Source of the DNA: Flavobacteriales bacterium
GTDB lineage: Bacteria > Bacteroidota > Bacteroidia > Flavobacteriales_F > PHOS-HE28
Assembly (NCBI GenBank): GCA_044507815.1
Contig: JBIQIX010000004.1
Coordinates: 195,288-259,287 of the forward strand
Reading direction: 5' to 3'
Length of the DNA: 64,000 bases
Positions 4,908 through 49,969 of this stretch are shown piece after piece (position 1 is the stretch's first letter; each line of letters starts with the position of its first letter). The notes under the pieces were generated by a model. The model ran no database searches. It was not told where the DNA came from and saw only the letters and a list, made by a program, of their open reading frames with translations. The translations under genes were made by a program, and so were the position numbers.

Positions 4908-5207
4908 TCGCGCGGTATTGCAGTGCGAGTGATCAAGGGCCGTGCCAAGACGCATGCCCGTTCAAACTGCGCACCGCATGGGGCAATATCCCTCCACATG
5001 TGGACTTCCTCCACACTTTTTTGTTGCCCGTGCCACACTCAGCAATGCCCCAGCAGGGTGTACACGAGAATGAAGATCAATACAGTGCCCAAGCAACCAC
5101 CGCCCCATTTGTAAGCGGCGGCACCAGCCAAGATCCCACGGAATAATTTGTTCATGTGTGAACGGGTTGTTTCCATGGGGAACAGCCCATTCAGTTCCAT
5201 GGTTCGG

Positions 5208-5729
5208 TCACCTGCCGAAAAGGAATGTGCGACCCGGAAGCAGTTCTCCCTTGCGCCATTTTTCCTTGCGCACCACCCGGTCGTTTTCATAGAATTTCCA
5301 ACTGCCGTGCTTTTTGCCATCCTTGTAATGGCCCACGATCCCTTGATCGCGGAAGGCCCAGGTACCCTCGCGTTTGCCCATGCGGAATTGTCCTTTCACG
5401 GTGATCCGGCCTGTTGGGTCATACTCCACCCAGTCGCCGTGCAGGCTGCCCCAGCCGTAAACCGCGAAAATGAGCTGTTTGCCATCGGGGTAAAATGCGC
5501 GGTAGATGCCACTGGGCTTGCCACGCTTGAAATCGATCTGCACGGCGGTGCGCGTGGTATCGAAGGCGTATTTGCCGATCAGCCGGAAGCGCTCTTCACG
5601 CGGCATGGGCCCATATTCCACGGGGTAGGCCACGGAAACGCCATTCTCGGGCACATAAAGCGTGTCGGGTTGGGCGAGGACAAGGTGGGTGCCAAGGCAG
5701 CACAGGCAGAACAGCAAATTTCGCAACAT
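5208..5729 (-). CDS. MORN-repeat protein (YwqK-like repeat family)
   Basis: A signal-like N-terminus (MLRNLLFCLCCLGTHLVLAQ) is followed by repeated G-x-W-x-x-Y/F-x-x-G MORN-type motifs (GDWVEYDPTGRI, GTWAFRDQGIVGHYKDGKKHGSWKFYEND). The start ATG at 5727–5729 overlaps the pbpC stop as ATGA. Confidence 0.65.
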   Translation of the reverse strand: MLRNLLFCLCCLGTHLVLAQPDTLYVPENGVSVAYPVEYGPMPREERFRLIGKYAFDTTRTAVQIDFKRGKPSGIYRAFYPDGKQLIFAVYGWGSLHGDWVEYDPTGRITVKGQFRMGKREGTWAFRDQGIVGHYKDGKKHGSWKFYENDRVVRKEKWRKGELLPGRTFLFGR

Positions 5730-8134
5730 CACGGGTTGGATCTGCCCTGGCCACCAACCACCGTAAAGGTGCGGTGCAGCCTGTGGCCACGGGCATCGGT
5801 CAAAGTTATGCGGTGGGTTCCGTCGGCCGGTGAGAGCGCCATGCGGTGATCGCCCGTGGTGCTGCCGAAGTATTCCCCGTCGAGGTCCCAGAACAGCGTG
5901 GCCCCACCATCGCGGTGTGCCACTTCCACCACCATGTTCCCCCGGCTGCCATCCAGCTGCATGGGAATCAGGATCTTGGAACCCGCTTCGGGATAAAGGA
6001 TTTCCATGGGTGCGTCGTTGTCTTGCGTTCCCTCTTTCCACGGCGGAAGGGGTGCATAAGCTGGGTTCCGCTTGGCGTAATAATGTTCCATGGCGGGTGG
6101 CAATACGAACCACACGCTGGGGCGGCCGCTGCCATTGCCGGTGCGGTACATGCCGGACGGATCGAGCGTTATGCGCCGGTGGTAGGGGCAAACGGGGGAG
6201 CGCATGGCTTGTGGCGGCACCCAGAGCGTATCCGGCGCCGGGCAATCGGCACCTGCACGGTGGCCACTGGCGCGGCAGATCTGCGCGCGCACCATTTCGT
6301 CATAGGGCGGTTCCACCGGCGGGTCCTTGGGCAACAGGTTGAACAGGTCGAAAAGCAACGGTGCGGCAGCCAAGGTGCCGGTCAACCCCGGCCTTCCTTC
6401 GCCGGAGGCGTTGCCGGTCCACACGGCGACGCAATGGCGCGAGGTAAGGCCTATGGCCCAAGCATCGCGGTGCCCGTAGCTGGTGCCGGTCTTCCAGGCG
6501 ATCTGCCTGCCTCCGCTGAAGTGGTTCCAACCCTGTTCATCTGCGGGCCTGGCCACATTGCGCAGGGCTTTCAGGGTGAAGTAGATCGAACTTGCGCTCA
6601 ATGCGGGCGCAGTTTCCAAGGGCACCGCACCGGCATCGGAAGATCCCGGGGATGACAGCACGTGGGGCGGCCGGATGTCGCCTTGGCGGTATGCCATGCC
6701 CAAGCGGCCATAGTGGTTCAATACCCGCCCCATGCTGGCATAGGCGCCGGCCAATTCCCACAGGGTCGATTCCGCGCCGCCCACCACAAGTGACAGGCCG
6801 TAATCGTCGGCACCGCGATTTATGCTGGCCAGCCCGTACGCACGCAGCATCAGCAGGGTGCGCTCCAAGCCGTGGCTGCGCAAGGCGCGCACCATGGGCA
6901 CGTTCAACGAGCGCGACAGGGCCTCCGAGGCCGGTACGGCGCCGCTGTATTGTTCATCATAATTGCGCGGCGAAAATTCATTGTACCGTGTGGGCACATC
7001 GGCCAGCAGCATATCGGGTGCCAGCTCACCGCTCTGCAGCATGTCCGCGTACAAGAAAGGCTTCAATGTGCTGCCCGTGCTTCTTTTGGCCTGCACCAGG
7101 TCCACGCTTCCGGCATGGGTGCCGCCGGCCTGGCCAAGGTTGCCCACGTAGGCCAGCACCTGTCCGGAGTTGACATCCATGATCAGTGCGGCGGCATTGT
7201 GCACCTCATTGGCCGCCAGGCGTGCAGCATAGCGGTCGGCGGCGATGGTGGCGCGGCGCTGGAGGCCGCCGTGCAACGTGGTGCGCACGAGCTTGCCGCG
7301 GTGCCCGGTGGCAGCCAAGGTGGCCAACAGGTGCGGCGCATCGCGGGGGAGTTCCTGTGCCTTTCCCGGCAGCGGCTCCTCCTTGGCCAACGACCATTCC
7401 AGGGTGTCGATCGCATGCACGGCCAACAGGCGGTCCAACAGACGGTCGCGCTTGGTGCGCAGGGCCTCATGGCCTTTGCCGGGGTAGATGGCCGAAGGCG
7501 CGTTGGGCAGGACGGCCAAGGTGGCGCATTCGCTCCAGCCCAGGCTGCTGGCCGGGCGGTGGAAATAGCGCCATGCGGCGGCGTCAACGCCCACCACGTT
7601 GCCGCCGAAAGGGGCGTGCGCGGCAAAGAGCCGGAGAATTTCCTCTTTGTTGAACCGCAGTTCCAGCCGTAGCGCCAGCAGTGCCTCGCGGAGCTTTTCA
7701 CCATAGGTGCGGAGCCGGTTGCCCCGGGCCATGCGCGCCAATTGCATGGTGAGGGTGCTGCCGCCGCTTATTACCCGGCCGGCCTTCCGGTTCTGCAGCC
7801 ACGCCCGCACCAGCGCGCCGGGGCTGATGCCCCAATGCCGCCGAAAGCCGCGGTCCTCGAACTGCACCAGGCATACCGTGAAGCGGGCGGGTACTGCTTC
7901 CGGTGGCGGAAACCGCCATTGGCCATCGGTGGCCACGGTGGCCCCCAGCAACTGCCCGTCCCGGTCCATCAATACCGTGGATGTGGGCGCGGGGAAAAGC
8001 GGGGGCATGGGCCACCAACGCGCCCAGGCCAAAAGGGCCAGCAGTAAGGCGGCTGCCAGCCACCAGCGCCAACGGCGCCACCGGCGCCAATGAAACGCAG
8101 GCAAAAAGGGGGTGCTGCGCAACAGCGGGGCCAT
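5729..8134 (-). CDS. pbpC: Penicillin-binding protein 1C (bifunctional transglycosylase/transpeptidase)
   Basis: GT51 transglycosylase motifs EDRGFRRH and GGSTLTMQLAR are present. The transpeptidase domain has STLKP (SxxK) and KTGT. The C-terminus is PbpC-like. The start was chosen at MAPLLRS (8134) because of the following membrane anchor. Confidence 0.85.
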   Translation of the reverse strand: MAPLLRSTPFLPAFHWRRWRRWRWWLAAALLLALLAWARWWPMPPLFPAPTSTVLMDRDGQLLGATVATDGQWRFPPPEAVPARFTVCLVQFEDRGFRRHWGISPGALVRAWLQNRKAGRVISGGSTLTMQLARMARGNRLRTYGEKLREALLALRLELRFNKEEILRLFAAHAPFGGNVVGVDAAAWRYFHRPASSLGWSECATLAVLPNAPSAIYPGKGHEALRTKRDRLLDRLLAVHAIDTLEWSLAKEEPLPGKAQELPRDAPHLLATLAATGHRGKLVRTTLHGGLQRRATIAADRYAARLAANEVHNAAALIMDVNSGQVLAYVGNLGQAGGTHAGSVDLVQAKRSTGSTLKPFLYADMLQSGELAPDMLLADVPTRYNEFSPRNYDEQYSGAVPASEALSRSLNVPMVRALRSHGLERTLLMLRAYGLASINRGADDYGLSLVVGGAESTLWELAGAYASMGRVLNHYGRLGMAYRQGDIRPPHVLSSPGSSDAGAVPLETAPALSASSIYFTLKALRNVARPADEQGWNHFSGGRQIAWKTGTSYGHRDAWAIGLTSRHCVAVWTGNASGEGRPGLTGTLAAAPLLFDLFNLLPKDPPVEPPYDEMVRAQICRASGHRAGADCPAPDTLWVPPQAMRSPVCPYHRRITLDPSGMYRTGNGSGRPSVWFVLPPAMEHYYAKRNPAYAPLPPWKEGTQDNDAPMEILYPEAGSKILIPMQLDGSRGNMVVEVAHRDGGATLFWDLDGEYFGSTTGDHRMALSPADGTHRITLTDARGHRLHRTFTVVGGQGRSNP

Positions 8135-24312: not shown

Positions 24313-25323
24313 TCAGAACTTCGGGCAGGGCACGGCGCGGTACTTCCGGTTCTTTCCGGTGCGCGGCCATTCATAGATCACGGAGATCTCATGGGCACCG
24401 CCGCTTTTCATCGTCAGCTTGCTCACCGTAACGTCATAGCTGTACACCAGCCGCAATTGGTAGGGTGTTTCATAGCCCATCATCAAGATCACGGCATCGT
24501 CGTTCGGGTAGCCGGGCTGGTATGCTTTCAGGCCGGGCAGGCCGCGGTACCAAAGCCCGAAGCTCACTTCGCGGTGGTCCACATAGCCGCCCAGGTCCAG
24601 CTGGTCCCATTTCTGTTGTGCCTTGTAGTGCGCGGCCAGCGTCATTTTGGTCTCGCTGTAGCGGAATGACCTTCCATCGAGCGGAAAGCGGTAGCCAGCG
24701 TGCACGCTGCTGCGGATCGGCAGTTGGGCGTCGCCATCCAGATAGATGCTTTGCTGGGGGCGGTTGATGTGGTTGGTGGAAAAGCCCGCCCAAAATTGCT
24801 CCGAGTAATAAAGAAAGCCGGCGGAGAAATCGAGGTAGGACACGTTCTGCATGCTGGGTGCCTCAATGCTCCTGGGCGCATTGTCGCGGATCACCTGGTC
24901 GGCGAACAGCATGTTGCCCTGGTCGAAGGTGCGGGAGGTGTAGGCCGCACGGATGCCGCCCCTAACCGCACGGCGCCGGTTGATGCGCGCCTCGTAGGAG
25001 TAATTGAGGGCCATTTGGGTGAAGGCCAGGTTGAAGGTGCCTGCCCGGTCATGCATCACCATGCCGCCGATGCCGCTGTTGATGTCGGCCGCCCGGTGGT
25101 CGTATGCAACGGCGTAGGTTTTGTAACCAGGTCCGATGCCTGGCCACTGAAGCCTGTAATTTATGCCGATCCGGTCCTGGTGCGTGTTGCCGGTAAGGGC
25201 CGGATTGAGGTACATCGGCGCTGCATACCATTGCGACAGTTGCGGGTCCTGGGCGGAAAGCCGTGCGGTTGCGATGGCCACCACCGCAAGAAGCGGAAGG
25301 ATGCGTGTCATGTTTCGGCTCAT
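24313..25323 (-). CDS. Type IX secretion system membrane protein of the PorP/SprF family (cognate partner of the upstream type-B C-terminal-domain adhesin)
   Basis: Signal peptide plus the family N-terminal signature (QDPQLSQWYAAPMYLNPALTGN…RIGINYRLQW) and a beta-barrel-like remainder. The start ATG (25321–25323) overlaps the adhesin stop codon as ATGA. An alternative start is at 25311. Confidence 0.75.
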   Translation of the reverse strand: MSRNMTRILPLLAVVAIATARLSAQDPQLSQWYAAPMYLNPALTGNTHQDRIGINYRLQWPGIGPGYKTYAVAYDHRAADINSGIGGMVMHDRAGTFNLAFTQMALNYSYEARINRRRAVRGGIRAAYTSRTFDQGNMLFADQVIRDNAPRSIEAPSMQNVSYLDFSAGFLYYSEQFWAGFSTNHINRPQQSIYLDGDAQLPIRSSVHAGYRFPLDGRSFRYSETKMTLAAHYKAQQKWDQLDLGGYVDHREVSFGLWYRGLPGLKAYQPGYPNDDAVILMMGYETPYQLRLVYSYDVTVSKLTMKSGGAHEISVIYEWPRTGKNRKYRAVPCPKF

Positions 25324-28300
25324 CGGAACAGGGTGAGGTCGCCGGTGCGCTGCATTTCCTTGTTGTCCACAAAGCGCACCCACACTTGATAGACATAAAC
25401 ATCCTGTTGGCTCAACTGGCCCCGGTAGTAGCCATCCCAGCCACGCCGGATATCGTCGCTTTCAAATACCAGTTCACCCCAGCGGTTGAAGATCCGCATG
25501 CGGAAATTCTTAACGAAGCGGATGAATGGATAGAACACATCGTTGCTCAGGTCGGAAGGGTCGTAAAACCCATTGCCGCCGCCGTTGGGGTTGGGGGTGA
25601 ACACGTTTGGTATGGTGATATCGTAGATCGGGTTTACCTTTACCGTGTGCCCGACATTCGCGGTGCATCCATGGTCATCGGTCACCGTAAGCCCCACTGT
25701 CCATACCCCGGGTTCTTCGAAATGGTGGTACGGGCTCGGATCCAGGCTCATGGCACCATCGCCGAAGCTCCATTGCCAACTGTTCACCGTGCCGGTGGAT
25801 TGGTCGATGAACTGGATGTTGGCATGGTCTGCATCGGTTTCCCATGGGTTGGCGGTGAATGCGGCCACTGGCGGGGCGAACGCGTGTACGGCGCCTGTGT
25901 TGGCCGCATTTGCCGAGCAGCCCAGCGGGGTGGTGACCGTAAGCGAGACGTTGTAATTGCCCGCCGTATAGGTGTGCACCGGTGACATCGAGGTGCTGGT
26001 GGCGCCGTTGCCGAAATTCCAGAAATAGCTCACGGGCTGGTTGGTAAGCCCTGTGGGGAAGTGTACCGTAAGCGGGGCGCAGCCTTGTGCGATCACCGGC
26101 GGAAGGGTAATGGTGGGCGGTGTTTCCACGGCGATGTTCACCGAGCGTTGGATGGTATTGGCGCAGATGTCGGTGGCCGTTACGGTCAATGAGCGGCTGG
26201 CCTGGGCAGTGATGTGGAACGGTCCGCTGCCGGTGGCCGGTATTTGCGGCCAGGACAGGGAGGTTTGGCCCGGGTAACCCGTTACCCATGCACCCACCGT
26301 GGCCGTGCCGCCAGGGCAGAAGGCGGTGTCGCCATATGTGTTCAAGGTGGCCAGTGCGAGGTTGAGCACGGTTACCGGAAGTTCCACGATGGGGCCATTG
26401 CACCCGTTCTGGTCCGTAACGCTAACGGTCACCACCTGCGTGGCGGGGAAGGAATATTGCAGGCTATCGCCCGTGCCGATGCCTGCCCATGTGATCTGGT
26501 AGTTCCCAGCGCCGCCGGCCGCCTGCGCCGTAAGCGGCACCGGCACGTTCACGCATACGGTATCCTCCACCTGCGCGGTCAGCAGCACCGGCGTTGGGTC
26601 GGGCAGTGTTACGGCGCCCTGCACCTGGCAACCGTGGCTGTCGGTGACCACCACGGTGTAAGCGCCGGCGGTAAGGCTGTACGCGGACGAGCCCGTTTGC
26701 GAATTGGTGTTGGCGCTCCACTGGTAGCTGTAGCCGGGTGTGCCGCCTGCAGGTTGGCCCATGGCCGAGCCATTGGCGCCACCATGGCATGAGGGCGCGT
26801 TGGGTTGAATGTTCACCGTAAGTGGTGCGGGTTCGGTGATCGTGGCGGTTGCCGTGGTGTCGCAGCCATGTTCATCGGTAACCAGCACGCTATATGTTCC
26901 TGCCGAGAGGCCCGTGGCCGTGGCGCTTTGTTGCCCTGCCGCATCGTTCCAGCTATAGGAGAAGCTGTTGTTGGCGGGCAGGAATGCGATTGCGCCTGAA
27001 CCATCGCCGTGGCAGGACAAATGTGTTGGCGTGATGCTGCTTCCAAAGAAGCTTGTGGGCAGCGTGATGTGCACGGTATCGGTGGCCGGAGGGCAGGTGG
27101 GGTTGCCCGTGGTGGTGAGCACCAGGCTCACACCGTTGGCCATGATCTCGGCCACCGTGGGCATGTAGGTCACATTGAGGCCGGTACCGGAGAATTGGCC
27201 ATTGCCTCCGCCCCATTGGCCGCTGGTGGCGTTGGTCACGGTCCCGTTCAGCTGCACGGGCAGGCTGCTGAAGCATCCGATGAGGTCAGCGCCCGCGTTG
27301 GCCGCGTTGGGCTGGCCCAAGGCCGTGATGGTTGCGGTGCCTTGTGCGGCCGCACAGTTGTTGGCGTCGGTAACAGTTAGGGTGTAGGTGCCGGCCGGGC
27401 CGTTCAGCGTGCTTCCCGTTTGCCCGTTGCTCCAGGCATACTGATAGGGCTGTGTTCCACCTGTGACGGTTGCCACAATGCTGCCATCGGCGTTGCCTGC
27501 GCATTGTTCATGGGTCACTTGCAGGGAGGCCACCGCCAATGCAGCGGGTTCGCTGATGGTGACGCTGAAGGTGGTGTCACAGCCGTAGGCATCGGTAACC
27601 AGCAGGTTGTGGTCCCCTGCGGGAAGCCCCGTTGCATTGGCCGTGCCTTGGCCGCTGGGCGTCCATTGGAAGGTCAACCCCGGGGTTGCTGGCGTAAAGG
27701 TGGCCGAACCGGTGGCTGTGCCGTTACAGGTGGCGTTGGTGTGTGAGACACTGCTTCCGAAGAAACTGGTGGGCAGCGTGATATGCACGGTATCGGTGGC
27801 CGGTGGGCAGGTGGGGTTGCCCGTGGTGGTGAGCACCAGGCTCACACCGTTGGCCATGATCTCGGCCACCGTGGGCATGTAGGTCACATTGAGGCCGGTA
27901 CCGGAGAATTGGCCATTGCCTCCGCCCCATTGGCCGCTGGTGGCGTTGGTCACGGTCCCGTTCAGCTGCACGGGCAGGCTGCTGAAGCATCCGATGAGGT
28001 CAGCGCCCGCGTTGGCCGCGTTGGGCTGGCCCAAGGCCGTAATGGTCGCACTGGCCTGGGCCGTGGTACAGTTGTTCGCATCGGTAACCGTTAGCGTGTA
28101 CGTACCTGCAGGGCCATGCAGGGTGGCGGTGGTTTGCCCGTTGCTCCAGCTATATGCATACGGTGGCGTGCCGCCGGTAACAATGGCGGTAATGGTGCCA
28201 TCGGCGTTCCCGGCGCATTGTTCGTCGGTCACCTGCAGGTTTGCGATGGCCAATGCGGCGGGTTGCGCTATGGTGGCTGTAAGGGTGGTGTCGCAGCCGG

Positions 28301-30137
28301 AGTTGTCGGTGACCAGTACGCTGTATGTGCCCGCTGGCAAGTCGGTGGCCGTGGCCGTGGTTTGGGCCGAAGGATCGTTCCATAGGAAGCCCAGCCCTGC
28401 CATAGTGGTGGTTACAGTAGCACTTCCGGTGGCTGAACCATTGCAAAGAAGGTCCGTTGCGCTGATGCTGCTTCCGGCGAAGCTGTTCGGCAGCGCGATG
28501 AACACGGTATCGGTGGCCACTCCGCATGGCGATTCACCGGTGGTGCTCAGCACCAAATGCAAACCGCCCGCGGCCACTTCACTTGGCGTGGGCATATAGC
28601 TCACATTCAGGCCTGTGCCGGACAAGGTGCCATCGCCCCCGCTCCAAATGCCGCCCGGGGCATTGGTTACCGAGCCGCTCAGTGCCACGGGCAAGGCGCC
28701 CATGCATCCTACCAGGTCCGGACCTGCGTTGGCCGTGCTGGGCTGGTTGGCCTCACCGATGGTAACGGCCAACGGCCCGGCAATGCAGCCGTTGCCGTCA
28801 GTGATCACCAAGGTGTAATTGCCAGCTGGCGCCGTGATCGAAGGGGTGGTGGCACCGGTGCTCCATTCATACTGGAACGGGGGCGTGCCCACGGTGATGT
28901 CCACGGTCGCACTGCCGTCCTGGTTGCCCGTGCACGACTCATCCACCACCGTGGGCGCGGCCGTCAGCAGCCCGGGCAGCACTTGCACCGAATACACATA
29001 GGTCTGCAGCGCGGGAATGGGGCATGCTCCATCATTTGCGGTGATGATGAATGGGAAGAAACCCGAAGCGCCGGGCGTGCCGGTCCAACAGACCCGAACG
29101 GTGAGCGGATTGGTGCCAACGGTGGTCAACGTGGCACCTGGCAGATTTTGTGCGAGGTTGGAGGTTACAGTGAGCACATCACCGGAGTTCGGGTCGCCGA
29201 TCACGGCATCGAAACAAAAATTCCCCGATTCGCAAATGCGGATGGCTCGGGGCCCCGTTTGCCATGCTTGGCCACTGAGGTTGCTCACCAGTCCCGTGGT
29301 GGGGTCGGGCGGGATGTTGGTGCAGGGGTAGGCAATGAACTGCATATCGCGCATGATCGATCCGATCCATACGCCATTGTGATCATAACGGTCCACCCGT
29401 ACAACCACCACCCAGTTGCCCACTTGGTTGAGCGTGAAGTTCACTTGTCCTGTGTGCGGGTCGAGGGTGATCCCCGTAATGGGCTCGGTGCCGGAAAATG
29501 GTGGCACATAGGGCAGGTCAACTGCGCCAACGTTACGCGCGTTGATGAAAGTGTAGGTCAATGAATCACCGGCCGGGTCGTAGGCCCCGTAGCTGTATGA
29601 GATGGGGTAGCCGGCACATACGTACGGGATGGCGGCGTTGGTGAAGCGCGGCGACTCCTGGCAAGGCCCATCGACGTTGTTGATGCGCGCCTCGGTGTAG
29701 ATGTTCTTATTGCCGGGGGTCACCAAGTTGGCAATGGCACCGTTGCGGTAGGTGTCCGTCCAAGAGATCGTCCAGTAATCGCAGGGGGGAAGGGTGACCA
29801 CGCCGGTATACACATATTCCTGCATGCCCGGCAATGATCCGTTGCTGTGGCAGGTGCTTTGGGCCATTTGGGCCTGGCAGAGCTGGGAGATTTCGGTGCC
29901 ACCGTTGGTGCTCACCGTAACGGAACGGTTGCCGCAAGGGCTCTGTACGCTGAGCGAGTATGAGTTGGAGAGGTTCTGCCCGGCGCAATCGCGGTACACC
30001 ATCATGGTGATCCGGTATTGGTTTCCGCCCAGGCATTCGTAGTAGATCTCGCCCCCGGCGATGTGCGTGGCCTTGGTGGTGGCGGCGGACAGCAATAGGA
30101 GAATGAGAAGCAGAAAGGCTGGTGATCTGCGTGGCAT
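25320..30137 (-). CDS. SprB-like giant cell-surface adhesin with a type-B T9SS/gliding-motility C-terminal domain
   Basis: There is a signal peptide (MPRRSPAFLLLILLLLSAATTKA). The body is built from many SprB-type repeats (C-x-G-x-x-DG-[ST]…VTGGT-x-PY-x-Y-x-WSNG). A PKD domain follows (WQWSFGDGAMS…GVWTVGLTVTDDHGC). The C-terminal domain matches the gliding-motility-associated type-B class (NVFTPNPNGGGNGFYDP…WGELVFES…GWDGYYRGQ…). The gene is immediately followed by a PorP/SprF gene. Confidence 0.8.
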   Translation of the reverse strand: MPRRSPAFLLLILLLLSAATTKATHIAGGEIYYECLGGNQYRITMMVYRDCAGQNLSNSYSLSVQSPCGNRSVTVSTNGGTEISQLCQAQMAQSTCHSNGSLPGMQEYVYTGVVTLPPCDYWTISWTDTYRNGAIANLVTPGNKNIYTEARINNVDGPCQESPRFTNAAIPYVCAGYPISYSYGAYDPAGDSLTYTFINARNVGAVDLPYVPPFSGTEPITGITLDPHTGQVNFTLNQVGNWVVVVRVDRYDHNGVWIGSIMRDMQFIAYPCTNIPPDPTTGLVSNLSGQAWQTGPRAIRICESGNFCFDAVIGDPNSGDVLTVTSNLAQNLPGATLTTVGTNPLTVRVCWTGTPGASGFFPFIITANDGACPIPALQTYVYSVQVLPGLLTAAPTVVDESCTGNQDGSATVDITVGTPPFQYEWSTGATTPSITAPAGNYTLVITDGNGCIAGPLAVTIGEANQPSTANAGPDLVGCMGALPVALSGSVTNAPGGIWSGGDGTLSGTGLNVSYMPTPSEVAAGGLHLVLSTTGESPCGVATDTVFIALPNSFAGSSISATDLLCNGSATGSATVTTTMAGLGFLWNDPSAQTTATATDLPAGTYSVLVTDNSGCDTTLTATIAQPAALAIANLQVTDEQCAGNADGTITAIVTGGTPPYAYSWSNGQTTATLHGPAGTYTLTVTDANNCTTAQASATITALGQPNAANAGADLIGCFSSLPVQLNGTVTNATSGQWGGGNGQFSGTGLNVTYMPTVAEIMANGVSLVLTTTGNPTCPPATDTVHITLPTSFFGSSVSHTNATCNGTATGSATFTPATPGLTFQWTPSGQGTANATGLPAGDHNLLVTDAYGCDTTFSVTISEPAALAVASLQVTHEQCAGNADGSIVATVTGGTQPYQYAWSNGQTGSTLNGPAGTYTLTVTDANNCAAAQGTATITALGQPNAANAGADLIGCFSSLPVQLNGTVTNATSGQWGGGNGQFSGTGLNVTYMPTVAEIMANGVSLVLTTTGNPTCPPATDTVHITLPTSFFGSSITPTHLSCHGDGSGAIAFLPANNSFSYSWNDAAGQQSATATGLSAGTYSVLVTDEHGCDTTATATITEPAPLTVNIQPNAPSCHGGANGSAMGQPAGGTPGYSYQWSANTNSQTGSSAYSLTAGAYTVVVTDSHGCQVQGAVTLPDPTPVLLTAQVEDTVCVNVPVPLTAQAAGGAGNYQITWAGIGTGDSLQYSFPATQVVTVSVTDQNGCNGPIVELPVTVLNLALATLNTYGDTAFCPGGTATVGAWVTGYPGQTSLSWPQIPATGSGPFHITAQASRSLTVTATDICANTIQRSVNIAVETPPTITLPPVIAQGCAPLTVHFPTGLTNQPVSYFWNFGNGATSTSMSPVHTYTAGNYNVSLTVTTPLGCSANAANTGAVHAFAPPVAAFTANPWETDADHANIQFIDQSTGTVNSWQWSFGDGAMSLDPSPYHHFEEPGVWTVGLTVTDDHGCTANVGHTVKVNPIYDITIPNVFTPNPNGGGNGFYDPSDLSNDVFYPFIRFVKNFRMRIFNRWGELVFESDDIRRGWDGYYRGQLSQQDVYVYQVWVRFVDNKEMQRTGDLTLFR
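26612..28753 (-). repeat. Intragenic tandem repeat array: three copies of a 714-bp (238-aa) unit inside the adhesin gene, with two copies sharing a perfectly identical 234-bp core
   Basis: The sequence at 27036–27345 matches 27750–28059 almost exactly, at an offset of 714 bp, and 27092–27325 versus 27806–28039 is identical. A more diverged third copy is recognisable at the protein level (GEANQPSTANAGPDLVGC… versus GQPNAANAGADLIGC…). The ORF track independently shows duplicated antisense peptides at 26968–27168 and 27607–27882. Confidence 0.75.
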
Positions 30138-31656: not shown

Positions 31657-33516
31657 TTGATGCGCTTGGAATGCCTGTTCGGCGTCTTTCTTTCAATTGG
31701 TGCCATGGCCCAAACCGGGCCTGCCGGCATTGGCGGCCCGCCCAGTAATCCGCTGTGGCTGGATGCCGGCACCGGGGTATTCAAGGGTGCCGGAAGCAAC
31801 CCGGCCGGCAACGGCGATGCCGTGCAACAATGGAACAATGTTTCCGGCAATGCCAGGCATGCACAACAATCGACAGCGCCCAACAGGCCGCAATACAGGG
31901 CGAACGTGCTGAATGGCCGGCCCGCTGTGCGTTTCAATGCCTCAAGCGGCACGCGCATGGCCATCTCGGCGTTGAACAGCTCCACGGCCGGAAAGGCTTC
32001 CCTGTGGGCCGTGGTCAGCTATTCCAGCTTGCCCAGCCCCAACCCCGGCGTGTTGCAGGGCACCGCCCCGGGCAACGTGTATTCCAGCATTCCAGCCGAT
32101 AAGAACATCGGCCTGTGGGTGAGCAACGTGCACAAGGTGTGGGGCAGGGGAATCCAAACCGATGGCGCAAGCGTGAATGTGCCCGCGGTCACTTCACTCT
32201 CGGCCAATACGTTCTACATCCTCAGCACACAGTACGATGGTACGCGGATCAGCCAGTATGTGAACAACGCTTCGGCAGGTGTGGCCAGCTACAACGGAAC
32301 CCTGCGGCCATGGCCCGATATGTCGATCGGCACCCAGGCCGGTACGGAGGGTTGGAATGGCGACATCGCCGAGGTGGTGGCCTTCAACACGGTGCTGAAT
32401 GGCACGCAGCAATTGATCATGGCCAACTACCTGGCAGCCAAGTACGGCCTTTTGCTCGGTGCCGACGATATCTACACGCAGGATGATCTGGCCAACGGTA
32501 ACTACGACCACGAGGTGGCCGGGATCGGACGGATATCGGCAACCGATATGCATACCTCGGCCAAGGGAACCGGCATTGTGCAGATCGCCGGTGCCACGGC
32601 TTTGGATAACAACGAATTCTTGATCTGGGGCCACGATGGCGGCACATTGGGCTCTTGGGGAGCAGGAGAACGCCCTGCGGGGGTAATGGAACGGCTGGTG
32701 CGGACGTGGCGGGTGAACGAAGTGAACCGCTCCGGAAACCCGGTGGACGTGGGCGCCGTGGACATCACCTTCGACCTGTCCGGCCTGGGGCCGGTGGTGG
32801 CCGCCGATCTGCGCTTGCTTGTGGACAGCAACAACGACGGTGCCTTCGCCGATGAATCGCCACTGGCCGGTGCGGTGGCATTGGGCGGCGGGCAGTACCG
32901 TTTCAACGGCATCTCCGCCCTAAAGAACAACGTCCGGTTCACCCTGGGCTCGGCCAACCGGGTAACCACGCCACTGCCCGTGGAATTGCTCCATTTCGAG
33001 GCCATTCCGCAGGGCAGGGAGGTGAGGCTGGCCTGGGCCACCGCAAGCGAAAGCAACAATCGTTGGTTCACCGTGGAACGCTCAGGCGATGCACTTGACT
33101 GGGAAGCTGTGGCCACTTTGCAGGGAGCGGGCAACAGCACCCAACCCCTGGAATATTCAACGCGCGACCTTGCACCCTTGGCAGGCACCAGTTATTACCG
33201 CTTGCGCCAGACCGACCACGATGGAAGAACCACATTTTCCGAAGCGAGGCCCGTGGTGAGGGGCATGCCCGCTCCGGTCATCATTTACCCGAATCCCGCC
33301 CGCGGGCCTTTCTCGGTGATGCTTGATCCCATGGAAGAGGATGCCACGGTGGAGCTGGTCGATATGGATGGACGTGTGCTGTGGCAGCGTACCTCAGCAG
33401 GGGCGGGCACCCGTGTGCTTGTGGATATGGCGGAGCTGCCTGCCGCGATGTACATGGTCAGGATCGCATCAGGCCAACATTCCCGCGCAGGAAGGTTGGT
33501 TGTTCCGGCCCATTGA
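31657..33516 (+). CDS. Secreted protein with a LamG/concanavalin-like domain and a type-A T9SS C-terminal sorting domain
   Basis: Signal peptide (MMRLECLFGVFLSIGAMAQ); LamG-like motif (GWNGDIAEVVAFNTVLN); a C-terminal domain with IIYPNPARGPFSVML…VELVDMDGRVL…YMVRI. Confidence 0.6.
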   Translation: MMRLECLFGVFLSIGAMAQTGPAGIGGPPSNPLWLDAGTGVFKGAGSNPAGNGDAVQQWNNVSGNARHAQQSTAPNRPQYRANVLNGRPAVRFNASSGTRMAISALNSSTAGKASLWAVVSYSSLPSPNPGVLQGTAPGNVYSSIPADKNIGLWVSNVHKVWGRGIQTDGASVNVPAVTSLSANTFYILSTQYDGTRISQYVNNASAGVASYNGTLRPWPDMSIGTQAGTEGWNGDIAEVVAFNTVLNGTQQLIMANYLAAKYGLLLGADDIYTQDDLANGNYDHEVAGIGRISATDMHTSAKGTGIVQIAGATALDNNEFLIWGHDGGTLGSWGAGERPAGVMERLVRTWRVNEVNRSGNPVDVGAVDITFDLSGLGPVVAADLRLLVDSNNDGAFADESPLAGAVALGGGQYRFNGISALKNNVRFTLGSANRVTTPLPVELLHFEAIPQGREVRLAWATASESNNRWFTVERSGDALDWEAVATLQGAGNSTQPLEYSTRDLAPLAGTSYYRLRQTDHDGRTTFSEARPVVRGMPAPVIIYPNPARGPFSVMLDPMEEDATVELVDMDGRVLWQRTSAGAGTRVLVDMAELPAAMYMVRIASGQHSRAGRLVVPAH

Positions 33517-45544: not shown

Positions 45545-48500
45545 TTAGCGACCCAGCAGGGCATTGAGGTGAAGTGTGGTCAGGCCCAATTGGAGCAGCA
45601 CATCGAGGTGGGCCTCCTCGATCGCCCTGGCTTGTTCCATGCCTTGCAGGAATTCCATGTAGCTGGCCTCGCCGCTTTGGTAGGCCCGGGTGGCATCATG
45701 GCGCAGGGCCGTGGCCAACGCCGTGCCTGTGCCCTGGTAGTATTCGAGGCTTTGTTGCAATTGGGTCCATTGGGCGCGTGTAGCGGTCAGTTCGGCCACA
45801 CGCCCGCGGCGCAGTTCCTCGTATTGTTGTTCGGCGATCTCGCTGCGCAGGCGGGCCGCACGGGTCTGCGCTCCCTGTCCCGAACCGGGCAGGGGGATGG
45901 AAGTGCCGAGCACGTAACCTTTGTATGGGAATACGCCATCGATGGATTGGAGGATCGCACCGGCTTGCAATGATGGCGCCCATTGGGCGCGCTGCATGCG
46001 CCATTCGGCCCCGGCCACTTGGGCCCGTTGCCGTGCCGATGCCAGCACGGGGTCGTGCCCAGCGTCTGCCGGCGGGTCGGTTAGCTGTGTTGCCATGCGG
46101 GCCAAGGCGGCGGTATCGGCGACGGCCCCGGCCAGTGGGCCGGTCCATTGTTCAAGTTCAACCGCAAAAACAGCCACGTCCGAGCTTGCCTTTTGCCATT
46201 GCAGCCTGGCCTGGTCGGCAGCGCTTTTCGCGCTCATGGCCTCCAAGCGTCCGCTTTGGCCCAGCTGGAATTTGCGGTCGGCCATGCTGGCCAGCAGTTG
46301 CATTGCGCTGTCGTTGCGCTGCAGTAGCCGTGCGCGCCAGGTGGCGGCCGACCACTGCAGGTAGGCCCCGGCCACGTTTTCGCGCACGGCCGCACCGATG
46401 CGCTGCCGGTCGGCCTCGGCTAAGCGCAGGCTTTCCTGCAAGTAGCGGCTGCGTTGGGCAATGGCCGTGGGGAACGGGATACCGGTAACGGCTTGCAGGT
46501 TGAAATCGTGGGCGGCACTGTTGATCTGCCCGCCCTGCAGCTGGGCGCTGACCGGTTGGAGCTGTAATGCGGTTTTCTTCAGGGCCTGCTGCTGCCGCAC
46601 GTCCAGTTCGGCGGCCGTAATGGCAGGGTGGCCCCGCATGGCGCGGGCGATGGCCGTATCAAGGGGCAGCACGGGCGCCTGCGCGCTTGCCGGCACGGCC
46701 GCCGTAATGGCCAAGGCGAGCACCATGATGGGCGCGCCGCCTGGGGAATCGCGCTTCTGCTTCCGTTTCCTGCGCATGAACACCCAGTGGTAGAGCACGG
46801 GAACCACGGCCAGGGTGAGCAGGGTGGAGGTTATGAGACCCCCGATAACCACCGTGGCCAAGGGACGTTGCACTTCTGCGCCGGGGCTGGTGCTGATGGC
46901 CATGGGCAGGAAGCCGAGCGAGGCCACGGCAGCGGTGGCCAGCACGGGCCGCAAGCGGGCCATGGTGCCGCGCACCACGCGCTCGGTCACGTCCTCCACG
47001 CCGTCCGCCTTCAAGCGGTTGAAATAGCTCATGAGCACGATGCCGTTGAGCACCGCCACGCCGAAGAGCGCGATGAAGCCGATGCCCGCGCTGATGCTGA
47101 AGTCCAGCCCGCGCACCCACAGGGCGAGCACGCCGCCCACCGCGGCCATGGGCACAGCGCTGAAGATGATCAGCGCTTCGCTGAGCGAGCGGAAGGCGAA
47201 GTAAAGCAGCACGAAGATGAGGGCCATGGCCAGCGGCACGGTGAGCAGCAGCCGCGCGCTGGCTTCCTGCAAATTCTTGAACGTGCCGCCGTAGCTGACG
47301 AACCAGCCGGTGGGCAGCTTCAGGTCGCGGCCGATCACGGCTTGGATATCTTCCGCCGTGCTTTGGATGTCGCGGCCCCGCACGTTGGCTTCCACCACGA
47401 TGCGCCGCGCGCCGTTCTCGCGGCTCACCTGTGCGGCCGCGCTTTGGAAGCTCACTTCGGCCAGTTGCCCCAGTGGGATCTGCTTGCCCGTGCCGGGCAG
47501 CGGCACCAGAATGCTCTTCACTTTATCGGCGTCCGCATCGCGCATGTCGGCCAGGCGCACCACCAGGTCGAAGCGGCGTTCACCTTCATACACCACGCCG
47601 GCGTGGCCGCCCGCCAAGGCGGTGTTCAGTACGCGGTTCAGCTCGGCGATGTTCAGCCCGTACTGCGCCACGCGGGCACGGTCGTATTTCACCACGAGTT
47701 GCGGCATGCCGGTCACCTGCTCCACCTTGATGTCCGTGGCCCCGGGCACCGTGGCGATCAGCGCGGCGGCTTCATTGGCCTTCTTGAACATGTGGTCGAG
47801 GTCGTCGCCGTAGATCTTCACCGCGATGTCGCTCTTCACCCCGGCGATCAGTTCGTTGAAGCGCATCTGGATGGGCTGCTCGAAGCTGAGGTTGATGCCG
47901 GGGATCACGCCGAGCTTTTCGGCCATCAGCTCCGCCATCTTCTCGCGGTCCTTCGTGGTGGTCCAGTCCTTGCGTTCCTTCATCACGATGATCAGGTCCT
48001 GGCTTTCCATGGGCATGGGGTCGGTGGGGATCTCGCTGCTGCCGATCTTGCCCACCACCTCCTTCACTTCCGGGAATTCCTTCATCAGGATGCGCGCGGC
48101 CTGATCGCTCACGGCGATGCTCTGGCTGAGGTTGCTTCCTTGGCGGATGGTGAGGTTGGTGGCGAAGTCGCCTTCATCCAGTTCGGGGATGAACTCGCCG
48201 CCCAAGCGGTTGAACACGAACAGCGAGATCACCACCAAGCCCAAGGCACCCGCCAAGGTGGACTTGCGGTGGCGCAGCAATCCCTTCAACTTGGGCGCAT
48301 ACCATTGCTGCAGGCGGTGTACCATGCGCTCGCTCCAGCTTTCACCTTTCGGGATCTGACGGTCCATGAAGAGTGAGACCACCCACGGCACATAGGTGAC
48401 GCTGAGCAGCAGTGCGCCGATGATGGCGAAGCTGACGGTGAATGCCATGGGGCGGAACATCTTGCCTTCGATGCCCACCAGGGCGAAGATGGGCACGTAC

Positions 48501-49873
48501 ACGATGAGGATGATCACCTGGCCGAAGACGGCGCTTTTCATGATGCCTCCGGCCGAGCGGATCGTCTCGTCGCTCATTTCCTTCTTGGTGAGAAGGGCTC
48601 CTGCGTGGCGCTTGTGCAGGGCGAAGAGCATGCCTTCCACCACGATCACCGCGCCGTCCACGATGAGGCCGAAATCCAGCGCGCCCATGCTCATCAGGTT
48701 GGCGCTCTGGCCGGCCACCACCATGCAGCCGATGGCGAACAGCAGCGCGAGCGGGATCACGCTGGCCACGATGAGGCCCGCGCGCCAGTTGCCCAGCAGC
48801 AGCAGCAGCACGGCGATCACGATCAACGCGCCCATCAGCAGGTTGTGCTCCACCGTGCCGATGGTCTGCGCCACCAGCTTGGAGCGGTCCACGAAAACAT
48901 CCACGTATACGCCTTCGGGCAGGCTGTGCCGCACCTCTTCCATGCGCTCCTTCACGGCGGTGACGGTGGCCATGGCGTTGGCGCCCTTCATCATCAGCAC
49001 CACGCCGCCCACGGCTTCGCCTTGGCCGTTGCGCGTCATGGCACCGTAGCGCGTGGCATGGCCGAACTGCACTTCGGCCACATCGCGCACGCGCACCGGA
49101 CTGCCGCCGCGCGCCTCGATCACCGTGTTCTCCAGGTCCTTTAGGGAACTCACTAAGCCTTCGCCGCGGATGAAGTAGATGTTCGGCCCTTTCTCGATGT
49201 AGCTGCCACCGGTGTTGGCGTTGTTGCTCTCCAGCGCGTTGAACACGTCCAGCAGGGAAAGCCCGGCACCGGCCAGCTTGCGCGCGTCCACGCGGACTTC
49301 ATACTGTTTCAGCAGGCCGCCGAAGCTGCTTACGTCGATCACGCCCGGCACGCCCAGCAGGTGTTGGCGCACCACCCAGTCCTGCAGCGTGCGCAGTTCC
49401 ATCAGGTCGAATTGGCCTTGGTGGGCGCTGTCCACGGCGAGGGTGTACTGGTAGATCTCGCCGATGCCCGTGGTGGGCGGCGCCATTTCCGGGGTGCCGT
49501 ATCCGGCGGGGATCTGGCTTTGGGCCTGTGCAATGCGCTCCTGCACCAATTGGCGGCTGAGGTAGAGCGGCACGTTGTCCTTGAAGACCACCGTGACCAC
49601 CGAGAGGCCGCTGCGCGAAACGCTGCGCAACTCCACCAGGTCGGGCAGGTTCTTGAAGGCCTGTTCCAGCGGGAAGGTGATGAACTGTTCCACCTCCTGC
49701 GTGGCGAGGTTGGGCGCAATGGTGTTCACCAGCACCTGGTTGTTGGTGACGTCGGGCAGCGCGTCGAGGGGCAGCTGGGTGACGGACCATGCGCCCCAGC
49801 CGATGAAGGCCAGGAGCAGCAGGCCTGTGATGAGCTTGTTGCGTACGGAGAACGAGATGATACGTTCGATCAT
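45545..49873 (-). CDS. CzcA/CusA-type heavy-metal efflux RND permease fused in frame to a TolC-like outer-membrane efflux protein module
   Basis: Residues 1–1032 form a 12-transmembrane RND permease (MIERIISFSVRNKLITGLLLLAF…). With no intervening stop codon this continues into MRRKRKQKRDSPGGAPIMVLALAITAAVPASAQA (a signal-peptide-like segment; ATG at 46777) and about 410 aa with outer-membrane-efflux-protein family helical-repeat character. Confidence 0.7.
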   Translation of the reverse strand: MIERIISFSVRNKLITGLLLLAFIGWGAWSVTQLPLDALPDVTNNQVLVNTIAPNLATQEVEQFITFPLEQAFKNLPDLVELRSVSRSGLSVVTVVFKDNVPLYLSRQLVQERIAQAQSQIPAGYGTPEMAPPTTGIGEIYQYTLAVDSAHQGQFDLMELRTLQDWVVRQHLLGVPGVIDVSSFGGLLKQYEVRVDARKLAGAGLSLLDVFNALESNNANTGGSYIEKGPNIYFIRGEGLVSSLKDLENTVIEARGGSPVRVRDVAEVQFGHATRYGAMTRNGQGEAVGGVVLMMKGANAMATVTAVKERMEEVRHSLPEGVYVDVFVDRSKLVAQTIGTVEHNLLMGALIVIAVLLLLLGNWRAGLIVASVIPLALLFAIGCMVVAGQSANLMSMGALDFGLIVDGAVIVVEGMLFALHKRHAGALLTKKEMSDETIRSAGGIMKSAVFGQVIILIVYVPIFALVGIEGKMFRPMAFTVSFAIIGALLLSVTYVPWVVSLFMDRQIPKGESWSERMVHRLQQWYAPKLKGLLRHRKSTLAGALGLVVISLFVFNRLGGEFIPELDEGDFATNLTIRQGSNLSQSIAVSDQAARILMKEFPEVKEVVGKIGSSEIPTDPMPMESQDLIIVMKERKDWTTTKDREKMAELMAEKLGVIPGINLSFEQPIQMRFNELIAGVKSDIAVKIYGDDLDHMFKKANEAAALIATVPGATDIKVEQVTGMPQLVVKYDRARVAQYGLNIAELNRVLNTALAGGHAGVVYEGERRFDLVVRLADMRDADADKVKSILVPLPGTGKQIPLGQLAEVSFQSAAAQVSRENGARRIVVEANVRGRDIQSTAEDIQAVIGRDLKLPTGWFVSYGGTFKNLQEASARLLLTVPLAMALIFVLLYFAFRSLSEALIIFSAVPMAAVGGVLALWVRGLDFSISAGIGFIALFGVAVLNGIVLMSYFNRLKADGVEDVTERVVRGTMARLRPVLATAAVASLGFLPMAISTSPGAEVQRPLATVVIGGLITSTLLTLAVVPVLYHWVFMRRKRKQKRDSPGGAPIMVLALAITAAVPASAQAPVLPLDTAIARAMRGHPAITAAELDVRQQQALKKTALQLQPVSAQLQGGQINSAAHDFNLQAVTGIPFPTAIAQRSRYLQESLRLAEADRQRIGAAVRENVAGAYLQWSAATWRARLLQRNDSAMQLLASMADRKFQLGQSGRLEAMSAKSAADQARLQWQKASSDVAVFAVELEQWTGPLAGAVADTAALARMATQLTDPPADAGHDPVLASARQRAQVAGAEWRMQRAQWAPSLQAGAILQSIDGVFPYKGYVLGTSIPLPGSGQGAQTRAARLRSEIAEQQYEELRRGRVAELTATRAQWTQLQQSLEYYQGTGTALATALRHDATRAYQSGEASYMEFLQGMEQARAIEEAHLDVLLQLGLTTLHLNALLGR

Positions 49874-49969
49874 GCACGGGTGGGCGCAAGGGCAGCCCGG
49901 GATTAAGAAGGAAGGACTTGGGAAAAGGGGACGCCAACAGGCATTGCCGGGCGCGCGGGCGCTATGCAC

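Follow-up and report, generated by a model that had tools for sequence, protein, structure and literature searches.

Homogenised domains and a probably inflated exact repeat in the stalk of a putative T9SS adhesin of a Flavobacteriales bacterium

A long exact repeat within the gene of a surface protein may be the trace of recombination, a substrate for further change in protein length, or a product of the assembly in which it is found. The question is raised by an adhesin gene in a window of 64 kb (the whole stretch of DNA analysed here, 64,000 nucleotides from a Flavobacteriales bacterium), in which two of three tandem units share a segment without a single mismatch. A first-pass annotation had taken this segment for a probable gene conversion within an array whose length may vary between cells. 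The locus thus asks how the two units came to resemble one another, whether their identity belongs to the genome or to its assembly, and over what timescale the number of units changes.

Architecture and setting of the adhesin

The gene lies on the minus strand at 25320..30137 (ORF list and translation) and encodes a protein of 1605 aa which is identical to P0001 of GCA_044508845.1. Its N-terminus, MPRRSPAFLLLILLLLSAATTKA, is hydrophobic and, judged by eye, resembles a signal peptide. There follow a beta-sandwich head of ~370 aa, three units of the domain order Sb-X-Sa, an extra Sb, Ig/PKD domains, and a T9SS type B C-terminal sorting domain (CTD). Pfam matches to SprB (136.7 bits; PF13573 repeats in four stretches), PKD_4 (87.3 bits), PKD (40.4 bits) and CHU_C (40.1 bits, cut-off 27) confirm the earlier placement of the repeat inside a SprB-like adhesin gene and add that its product ends in a type B CTD. 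The latter (25323..25616, minus strand, aa 1508-1605) is matched by CHU_C at aa 1508-1598, above its cut-off, and by NCBIfam TIGR04131 at aa 1509-1604, slightly below its own (33.4 bits, cut-off 35).

Self-blastp of the protein gave the self-match alone, and the units were delimited via motif anchors. Their alignment places unit 1 (Sb1-X1-Sa1) at 28239..28955 (aa 395-633), unit 2 (Sb2-X2-Sa2) at 27525..28238 (aa 634-871) and unit 3 (Sb3-X3-Sa3) at 26811..27524 (aa 872-1109), all on the minus strand, with lengths of 239, 238 and 238 aa. Three tandem units of about 238 aa had been described from the outset; to these is added a fourth SprB-type domain, Sb4, at the end of the array (26598..26810, minus strand). 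An AlphaFold model of unit 2 (pLDDT 94.3) consists of three tandem Ig-like beta-sandwiches, and each unit is predicted to form three Ig-like globular domains, together making an elongated stalk. The best PDB matches of this model are fragments of GhpA of Aureispira (Foldseek E=3e-7, TM ~0.52), likewise a T9SS-secreted filament of Ig domains. However, sequence identity to GhpA is ~20%, cadherins and NCAM score almost equally, as expected of a generic tandem-Ig resemblance, and the adhesin bears no sign of the hook or heptamer architecture. For the N-terminal head, the model (pLDDT 81) returned generic cadherin/Ig matches alone, at TM ~0.2, and so offers no functional clue.

The locus recalls that of SprB and SprF in Flavobacterium johnsoniae in its SprB repeats, its type B CTD and the PorP/SprF-family outer-membrane protein gene directly downstream (24313..25311, minus strand; Pfam PorP_SprF, 216.5 bits), a gene which is also kept in orthologous loci. 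It differs from that system in size, SprB being ~6500 aa long, and in possessing its own conserved Cys-rich beta-sandwich head. It differs also in gene order: a sprC/sprD-like gene is absent upstream, where ffh (SRP54) stands instead on the opposite strand, and of the sprC-sprD-sprB-sprF context only the sprF-like gene is found at the locus. "SprB-like" is therefore a fair label for the architecture of the adhesin, as known from sequence, and not for motility. SprF binds and anchors SprB, while PorP binds PG1035 (PMC9143113), and the PorP/SprF-family protein is presumed to be the adhesin's anchor or shuttle. A type A CTD protein at 31657-33516 (Pfam Por_Secre_tail) suggests that the genome encodes a T9SS. 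The adhesin is best explained as a putative T9SS-secreted, PorP/SprF-anchored surface protein with a stalk of old, positionally conserved 238-aa units.

Homogenisation of the X domains of units 2 and 3

The first-pass annotation reported a 234-nt match between 27092-27325 and 27806-28039. This is exact in the deposited sequence and extends to a maximal run of 236 nt, at an offset of 714 nt, between the X2 core (27805..28040, minus strand, codons 700-777) and the X3 core (27091..27326, minus strand). The claimed 714-nt periodicity was likewise recovered by a repeat search, which found a 300-nt segment three times, spaced by 714 and 717 nt, with identities of 100, 93 and 67%. TRF reported no repeat in the window, since its period limit of 500 falls short of the 714-nt period. 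The X2/X3 repeat is the sole long direct repeat in the 64-kb window, where no further copy of the 236-nt segment was found.

Outside this segment the units are old and diverged (~50-70% amino-acid identity). Nucleotide identity between units 1 and 2 is 40-67%, and between units 2 and 3 it is 72% in Sb and 34% (ungapped) in Sa. X1 shares 60% protein identity with X2 and X3, and the latter pair forms the only near-identical segment (91-97% nucleotide identity). When the observed differences between units 2 and 3 were permuted 20,000 times, the longest identical run did not exceed 69 nt, or 109 nt when confined to Sb and X. Third-codon-position divergence between the two units is 0.52 in Sb, 0.00 over the 78 codons of the X core, 0.32 in the X tail and 0.70 in Sa, and the cores show zero differences at all three codon positions. 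Meanwhile, Sa2 and Sa3 are each nearest to the same-position domains of three-unit orthologues (P0002-P0004; 0.61-0.64 versus 0.39-0.45), and the within-protein identity of X2 and X3, 1.0 as assembled, stands against 0.71 to the nearest orthologue. The third-position pattern and the positional orthology of Sa2 and Sa3 together indicate that a sub-segment was homogenised and that no whole unit was duplicated, as the first-pass annotation had proposed.

Could units 2 and 3 instead descend from a recent whole-unit tandem duplication, the flanking domains having then diverged rapidly under diversifying selection? The closest relatives by flanking sequence are indeed two-unit proteins (P0008, P0011 and P0021; 77-79%), but these lack the Sa2 type, which is consistent with loss rather than recent gain. 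Third-position divergence of 0.52 and 0.70 directly beside a value of 0.00, together with the nearest neighbours of Sa2 and Sa3, contradicts such a history, which we regard as most improbable. Less credible still is that purifying selection on the X domain maintained the identity without recombination. X is the most conserved of the three domains across the adhesin family, yet selection at the protein level cannot fix 78 successive codons at synonymous sites while adjoining codons differ at 32-70% of third positions, and X2 and X3 of orthologues share only 56-87% protein identity; the synonymous-site pattern contradicts this explanation.

We infer that recombination lies behind the similarity of X2 and X3: their X domains would have been homogenised over ~300 nt by intragenic, non-reciprocal homologous recombination (gene conversion), which would have left a sharp 5' boundary against Sb, itself near saturation at synonymous sites. 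The similarity itself is real, but of a kind ordinary among repeats.

Independent assemblies and the identity of the two copies

Whether the copies are truly identical was approached by comparing the window with two other contigs, L082 and L083, all three being independent metaSPAdes assemblies of the same clone and L083 coming from a different microcosm. The L082 contig measures 273,416 nt, as does that of the window, in opposite orientation. Over the 24.8 kb compared, the three are identical save for 36 patch sites (18 per copy, the same in both) and one SNP, at window position 20392 in L083; outside the patch, L082 and L083 thus show 0 and 1 differences from the window. The patch spans 90 nt at 27868..27957 in X2 and at 27154..27243 in X3 (both minus strand), with the same 18 substitutions in each, and is flanked by 83 and 63 identical nt. 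The window carries one version, allele A, and L002, L082 and L083 carry another, allele B, the two differing by seven amino-acid changes. L082 and L083 also hold two mutually identical 236-nt copies, but with allele B in both. Each of the five contigs on record has either A/A or B/B, and A/B occurs in none. The perfect identity claimed earlier therefore holds for the deposited sequence but is not confirmed as a property of the genome, since the content of the core varies with the assembly.

Alleles A and B appear, from their substitutions, to differ in the manner of old paralogues. The changes fall at third positions in 11 of 18 cases, include all mutation types and involve all four bases, and omega is ~0.2 (a rough estimate from codon positions). 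X1 agrees with A at 7 and with B at 8 of the 18 sites. This near-equidistance rules out X1 as donor of either allele and, should A and B be the two copies, makes a novel mutational process or an external donor unnecessary. A DGR-type mechanism is ruled out as well, the substitutions being not adenine-specific and resembling old, synonymous-rich divergence. When A and B were set beside the X2 and X3 domains of orthologues, no convincing assignment of alleles to positions emerged: the motifs NATSG and WGGG occur only in X2 among relatives, and B is closer to X3 of L005 (9 versus 5 sites) and L024 (8 versus 5), both of which are weak hints.

Most likely, A and B reside in different copies. One X domain would then carry A and the other B, the true identity of X2 and X3 would be ~91% at the DNA level, and the exact tracts would measure 83 and 63 nt. 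Such an alternation of identical, 20% diverged and again identical sequence needs patchy or repeated conversion. In meta mode, SPAdes runs by default at k of 21, 33 and 55 and applies limits on bulge length. Assuming one A and one B copy, the copies share 29 and 9 55-mers flanking the patch, which amounts to one simple bulge, whereas at k of 64 or more no A/B bulge would form; as both identical flanks exceed the assumed k of 55, the geometry is that of a collapsible bulge. The contigs were built by metaSPAdes 3.15.3 from 150-nt paired reads (PMC12159941). This program projects bulges aggressively, so that variants are masked, and works out repeats on the consensus graph (PMC5411777). Alleles A and B would look to it like the two sides of a bulge flanked by shared 55-mers and would be merged onto one path; the repeat, threaded twice through this consensus, would emerge as A/A or as B/B depending on the assembly.

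The observations resemble consensus collapse in the use of short reads, in a substitution-only block bounded by shared 55-mers (assuming a largest k of 55), and in the assignment of one allele to both copies, with a choice that differs among assemblies. The published case concerns strain variants, and we infer its extension to paralogous copies within one gene. Among relatives assembled from long reads, exact intragenic runs reach 74 nt at most, and homogenised Sb-X segments are 92-94% identical, not 100%. The uninterrupted 236-nt identity is thus probably in part a consensus artefact. The first-pass annotation had itself raised assembly collapse as the explanation contrary to its own, and our result comes close to that, the identity having probably been inflated by bulge collapse in metaSPAdes.

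The same contigs may be read differently. If the assemblies are correct, X2 equals X3 over 236 nt in each population, and A/A and B/B are true variants of an otherwise clonal organism, which arose either when an A/B ancestor underwent gene conversion in opposite directions or when a patch was imported and conversion followed. The two copies do match each other in every assembly, as truly homogenised alleles would; gene conversion demonstrably acts on this segment; and a relative from lake metagenomes has an exact intragenic repeat of 631 nt. Against this, at least one fixed conversion per lineage would be needed despite 0-1 other differences in 24.8 kb, and the A/B intermediate appears in none of the contigs on record. 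The clone occurs in microcosms begun with landfill soil as well as with cow dung, and a Flavobacteriales MAG whose statistics match is recorded from seawater; such a distribution speaks for a single shared source rather than for lineages evolving apart. Moreover, each end of the tract is separated from the patch by 55 nt or more, a spacing that is needed for the artefact but not for a real variant. We consider correct assembly unlikely on these grounds. Somewhat less probable is a mixture of subpopulations that are distinct at the patch, in one copy or in both, from which metaSPAdes would report the majority allele, so that A/A and B/B reflect strain proportions. The assembler is designed to reduce a mixture of strains to a consensus backbone (PMC5411777), and one additional SNP does exist among the assemblies, but the 24.8 kb are otherwise practically free of polymorphism, and co-existing strains would have to differ at the 36 linked sites and almost nowhere else. 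The account we favour, with moderate confidence, would combine conversion between X2 and X3, the collapse of A and B copies to one allele, and recombination that changes the number of units.

Unit number across the family and its significance

The adhesin belongs to a family with 967 matches at E <=1e-20 in uncultured Flavobacteriales. X-domain counts of 2, 3, 4 and 5 track protein lengths of ~1365, 1600, 1837 and 2076 aa, and syntenic orthologues, with ffh upstream and PorP/SprF and argS downstream, carry 2-5 units. A flank tree of 120 tips requires at least 26 changes in unit number, which upholds the suggestion of a labile array as far as evolution is concerned. The two-unit relatives miss exactly the Sa2-type segment, with the junction in Sb2/3-X2/3. 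Sb-X homology may thus have served over evolution as a junction for unequal recombination, each event adding or removing three Ig domains of the stalk, and the length of the stalk would presumably affect its function.

Ongoing change in the source organism, as proposed from the sequence, left no sign: the three assemblies compared at the DNA level all encode 1605 aa and three units, as do the only two recorded protein variants, which are found on five contigs. In each of the 14 multi-member 90% protein clusters read, the full-length members likewise share a single length class. Where a protein is shorter, it is a fragment or comes from a split gene; a few proteins deviate by <=~40 aa, and in no case does the deviation amount to a whole unit. 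One possible exception to this constancy within species-level clusters is P0010 (five units) versus P0049 (four), which have identical flanks and differ by exactly one unit; both are short-read assemblies from lake metagenomes. In P0046, X2 equals X3 at the protein level.

These features invite comparison with Periscope proteins (SasG, Rib, Sgo_0707 and others), which similarly present a surface stalk of tandem Ig-like domains whose repeat number differs among homologues, and in which the identity of the repeats at the DNA level is the presumed substrate of intragenic recombination (PMC8201768). Periscope repeats, however, are highly identical across the array and vary in number between strains, whereas the adhesin units mostly share 50-70% identity and keep their positional orthology across species, protein length is, with one possible exception, constant within species-level clusters, and near-identity is confined to one sub-segment of two units. 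The array as a whole does not have the highly identical DNA repeats that characterise Periscope proteins.

For metagenomic practice, a long "perfect" intragenic repeat in a short-read MAG may be created or lengthened by bulge collapse, and the comparison of independent assemblies of one clone reveals such collapse without recourse to reads. A real two-copy switch, by which otherwise clonal populations would differ in whether the 90-nt patch of the surface Ig domain reads A/A or B/B, has in our estimation a slim chance. If true, an environmental Flavobacteriales bacterium would vary a T9SS adhesin by a fast, concerted, conversion-based mechanism, in analogy to cassette-based antigenic variation yet inside one gene. 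More broadly, the locus represents a widespread family of T9SS type B adhesins in uncultured Flavobacteriales, with predicted stalks of three-domain, 238-aa modules that number 2-5 in synteny. On a timescale between species, and so far not within populations, the concept of the variable-length adhesin stalk may thereby be extended to T9SS cargo.

The repeat and the adhesin that carries it

The repeat is held by a 1605-aa adhesin ORF on the minus strand (ATG at 30137, stop at 25320-25322). The 234-bp perfect match claimed by the first-pass annotation is exact (27092-27325 against 27806-28039), and off-diagonal identity at the 714-bp offset is present as a longest exact run of 236 nt (27091-27326 against 27805-28040). 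A repeat search recovered a 300-nt segment three times, at spacings of 714 and 717 nt and identities of 100, 93 and 67%; this is the only long direct repeat within the 64-kb window. TRF reported no tandem repeat, missing this one because its period limit is 500. Across 20,000 permutations of the unit 2/unit 3 differences, identical runs reached at most 69 nt by chance, or at most 109 nt inside Sb and X, versus the 236 nt observed.

In Pfam the protein matches SprB repeats at 136.7 bits, PKD twice, and CHU_C, the type B sorting domain of T9SS cargo, at 40.1 bits (cut-off 27); NCBIfam TIGR04131 scores 33.4, slightly below its cut-off of 35. Directly downstream, a minus-strand gene (24313-25311) encodes a PorP/SprF protein (216.5 bits); type B CTD cargo is bound and anchored by PorP-like proteins, as SprB is by SprF (PMC9143113). 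The three tandem units of about 238 aa described in the annotation were recovered at aa 395-633, 634-871 and 872-1109, each arranged Sb-X-Sa, with a fourth Sb after unit 3. Sb and Sa are SprB-type domains, and X (about 97 aa) has no Pfam match. For unit 2, AlphaFold run on a 21-sequence alignment predicts three tandem Ig-like beta-sandwiches (pLDDT 94.3). In the PDB this model is matched best by pieces of GhpA, the grappling-hook protein of Aureispira (E=3e-7, TM about 0.5), and next by Ig and cadherin arrays of a generic kind. Beta-sandwiches are likewise predicted for the N-terminal 370 aa, whose structural matches are uninformative.

Two further genes in the window were noted. A second T9SS cargo gene (31657-33516, plus strand), two genes upstream of the adhesin, encodes 619 aa that include a Laminin_G_3-like region and Por_Secre_tail, a sorting domain of type A. 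At 45545-49969 (minus strand), a single 1474-aa ORF joins an AcrB-type RND pump to a TolC-like outer-membrane factor (OMF), with full-length ACR_tran at aa 37-1062, two OEP stretches reaching aa 1473 and no stop codon between. The junction sequence (...RKRKQKRDSPGGAPI-MVLALAITAAVPASAQ...) places the OMF's own signal peptide in frame; the ORF may be a genuine fusion or read-through, or a stop codon may have been lost.

Divergence between units 2 and 3

Read in the coding direction, the divergence of unit 2 from unit 3 varies sharply by segment. Some 27% of bases differ in Sb (codons 634-699; third-position divergence 0.52), whereas the X core (codons 700-777) has no difference in 78 codons (0.00); the next 19 codons, the X tail, hold six differences, all synonymous (0.32), and the Sa DNA beyond is nearly unalignable (0.70). 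Selection on the protein cannot wipe synonymous differences from one block beside near-saturated neighbours, and the X core block was therefore copied.

Duplication of the whole unit was ruled out by the positional affinities of Sa. The adhesin's Sa2 lies nearest the Sa2 of three-unit orthologues (0.61-0.64, versus 0.39-0.45 to their Sa3), and its Sa3 is weakly nearest their Sa3. Among 52 three-unit homologues, identity within the protein exceeds that to the nearest orthologue in seven cases for X2-X3 and seven for Sb2-Sb3, the adhesin among them, and in only one for Sa2-Sa3. By these comparisons the units are old, with one sub-segment homogenised. The annotation was thus right, on both the synonymous-site pattern and the positional orthology of Sa2 and Sa3, to prefer gene conversion of a sub-segment over whole-unit duplication.

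Two versions of a patch within the identical tract

The protein cluster has a second member, P0121, from another assembly; seven changes set it apart, each present in both X2 and X3, for 14 altered residues in all. We compared the DNA across three assemblies: the window (GCA_044508845.1) and loci L082 (GCA_044463085.1) and L083 (GCA_044508195.1). The L082 contig has the same length as the window's (273,416 nt) in opposite orientation and was therefore assembled independently; L083 is a 26.8-kb contig. Over 24.8 kb the three are identical save 18 substitutions in each of two 90-nt patches (27154-27243 and 27868-27957) and one SNP in L083 (window 20392, locus position 19746). Both patches carry version A in the window (A/A) and version B in L082 and L083 (B/B); of five contigs on record, two are A/A, three B/B and none A/B.

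Eleven of the 18 A-B differences fall at third codon positions, all mutation types are present, and omega is about 0.2 (a rough estimate from codon positions); X1 matches A at 7 and B at 8 of the 18 sites. A and B are on these grounds old diverged homologues, neither fresh mutations nor products of a DGR.

The source MAGs were built by metaSPAdes 3.15.3 from paired DNBSEQ reads of 150 nt, and the data paper lists a Flavobacteriales MAG of near-identical statistics for landfill, cow-dung and seawater microcosms (PMC12159941), hence one clone assembled several times. In essence the landfill-soil (window) and cow-dung (L083) assemblies represent a single clone, 0-1 SNP separating them over 24.8 kb once the patch is set aside; for the seawater microcosm, the paper lists a MAG of the same N50 (253,259) and GC content (PMC12159941). 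This suggests a shared origin in the laboratory or medium, or else cross-contamination, rather than three environmental origins.

Consensus collapse by metagenome assemblers is well known, and the meta-mode default is k=55. At that k, the copies of an A/B genome would share 29 and 9 55-mers on either side of the patch and form one bulge with arms of equal length; from k=64 upwards they would form none. By design, metaSPAdes hides variants by projecting bulges aggressively, and it resolves repeats afterwards, on the consensus graph (PMC5411777). If one copy in the genome were A and the other B, projection at k=55 would put both on one path, and the repeat, passed twice through the consensus, would emerge with copies alike and an allele set by chance in each assembly. 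This reproduces exactly the A/A and B/B pattern seen and needs no evolutionary event. A genuine concerted switch from A/A to B/B would require fixed conversion events in populations otherwise differing at 0-1 sites per 25 kb, and we consider it very unlikely. The perfect identity of the core over 234-236 nt, exact as it is in the window sequence, is therefore probably a product of assembly, since the patch differs between assemblies of one clone.

An A/B genome would put the identity of X2 to X3 at about 91% and leave perfect matches of 83 and 63 nt, which still exceed the permutation expectation; gene conversion therefore stands, while the perfect core does not. Long-read assemblies of relatives, a small sample, are consistent with the A/B arrangement, their homogenised Sb-X segments being 92-94% identical with a longest exact run of 74 nt.

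Unit number among orthologues and known systems

Among the best 120 homologues, X-domain numbers of 2, 3, 4 and 5 map exactly to length classes of about 1365, 1600, 1837 and 2076 aa, and a tree of the non-repeat flanks requires at least 26 changes in unit number, versus about 57 with shuffled tip labels. In species-representative genomes, among the matches listed, the gene lies between ffh and PorP/SprF-argS with two to five units, a shared position that makes these homologues orthologues. Two-unit relatives carry Sb1-X1-Sa1, then Sb and X of the 2/3 type and an Sa3-type Sa; they lack one period, with the junction in the same Sb-X segment as is homogenised here.

Repeat number thus varies among orthologues, but the ongoing expansion and contraction proposed by the annotation is unsupported: the clone's five contigs all encode the 1605-aa, three-unit protein, and in 14 multi-member 90%-identity clusters full-length members share one length class, none off by a whole unit, shorter members being fragments or split genes. 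The exception is a pair of homologues, P0010 (five units) and P0049 (four), which differ by exactly 239 aa and one other mismatch; the P0010 DNA has a 631-nt exact intragenic repeat (L084 4428-5058 against 5145-5775, offset 717). Each of the two is seen in several assemblies. Their sources are short-read lake metagenomes with numerous contigs broken inside the array, so that collapse of the tandem repeat and a true polymorphism are equally likely. The isolate genome of Cryomorpha ignava QSSC 1-22, a distant relative (29% identity), has an exact intragenic repeat of 149 nt at offset 705 (L041, about 3895); repeats may have been homogenised independently in this cultured organism.

In architecture the adhesin resembles SprB, with SprB repeats, a type B CTD and its own PorP/SprF partner; its far smaller size, lack of sprCD context and different head indicate that it is not SprB itself. 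Like Periscope proteins (PMC8201768), it has a predicted Ig-domain stalk of variable module number; unlike them, it lacks high identity along the array, their defining feature. The clone's contigs and the 14 clusters show no strain-level variation, the P0010/P0049 pair being a possible exception. Intragenic gene conversion and unequal crossover are well known in repeat adhesins. The repeat in this adhesin is real, and conversion of a sub-segment is the correct core interpretation.
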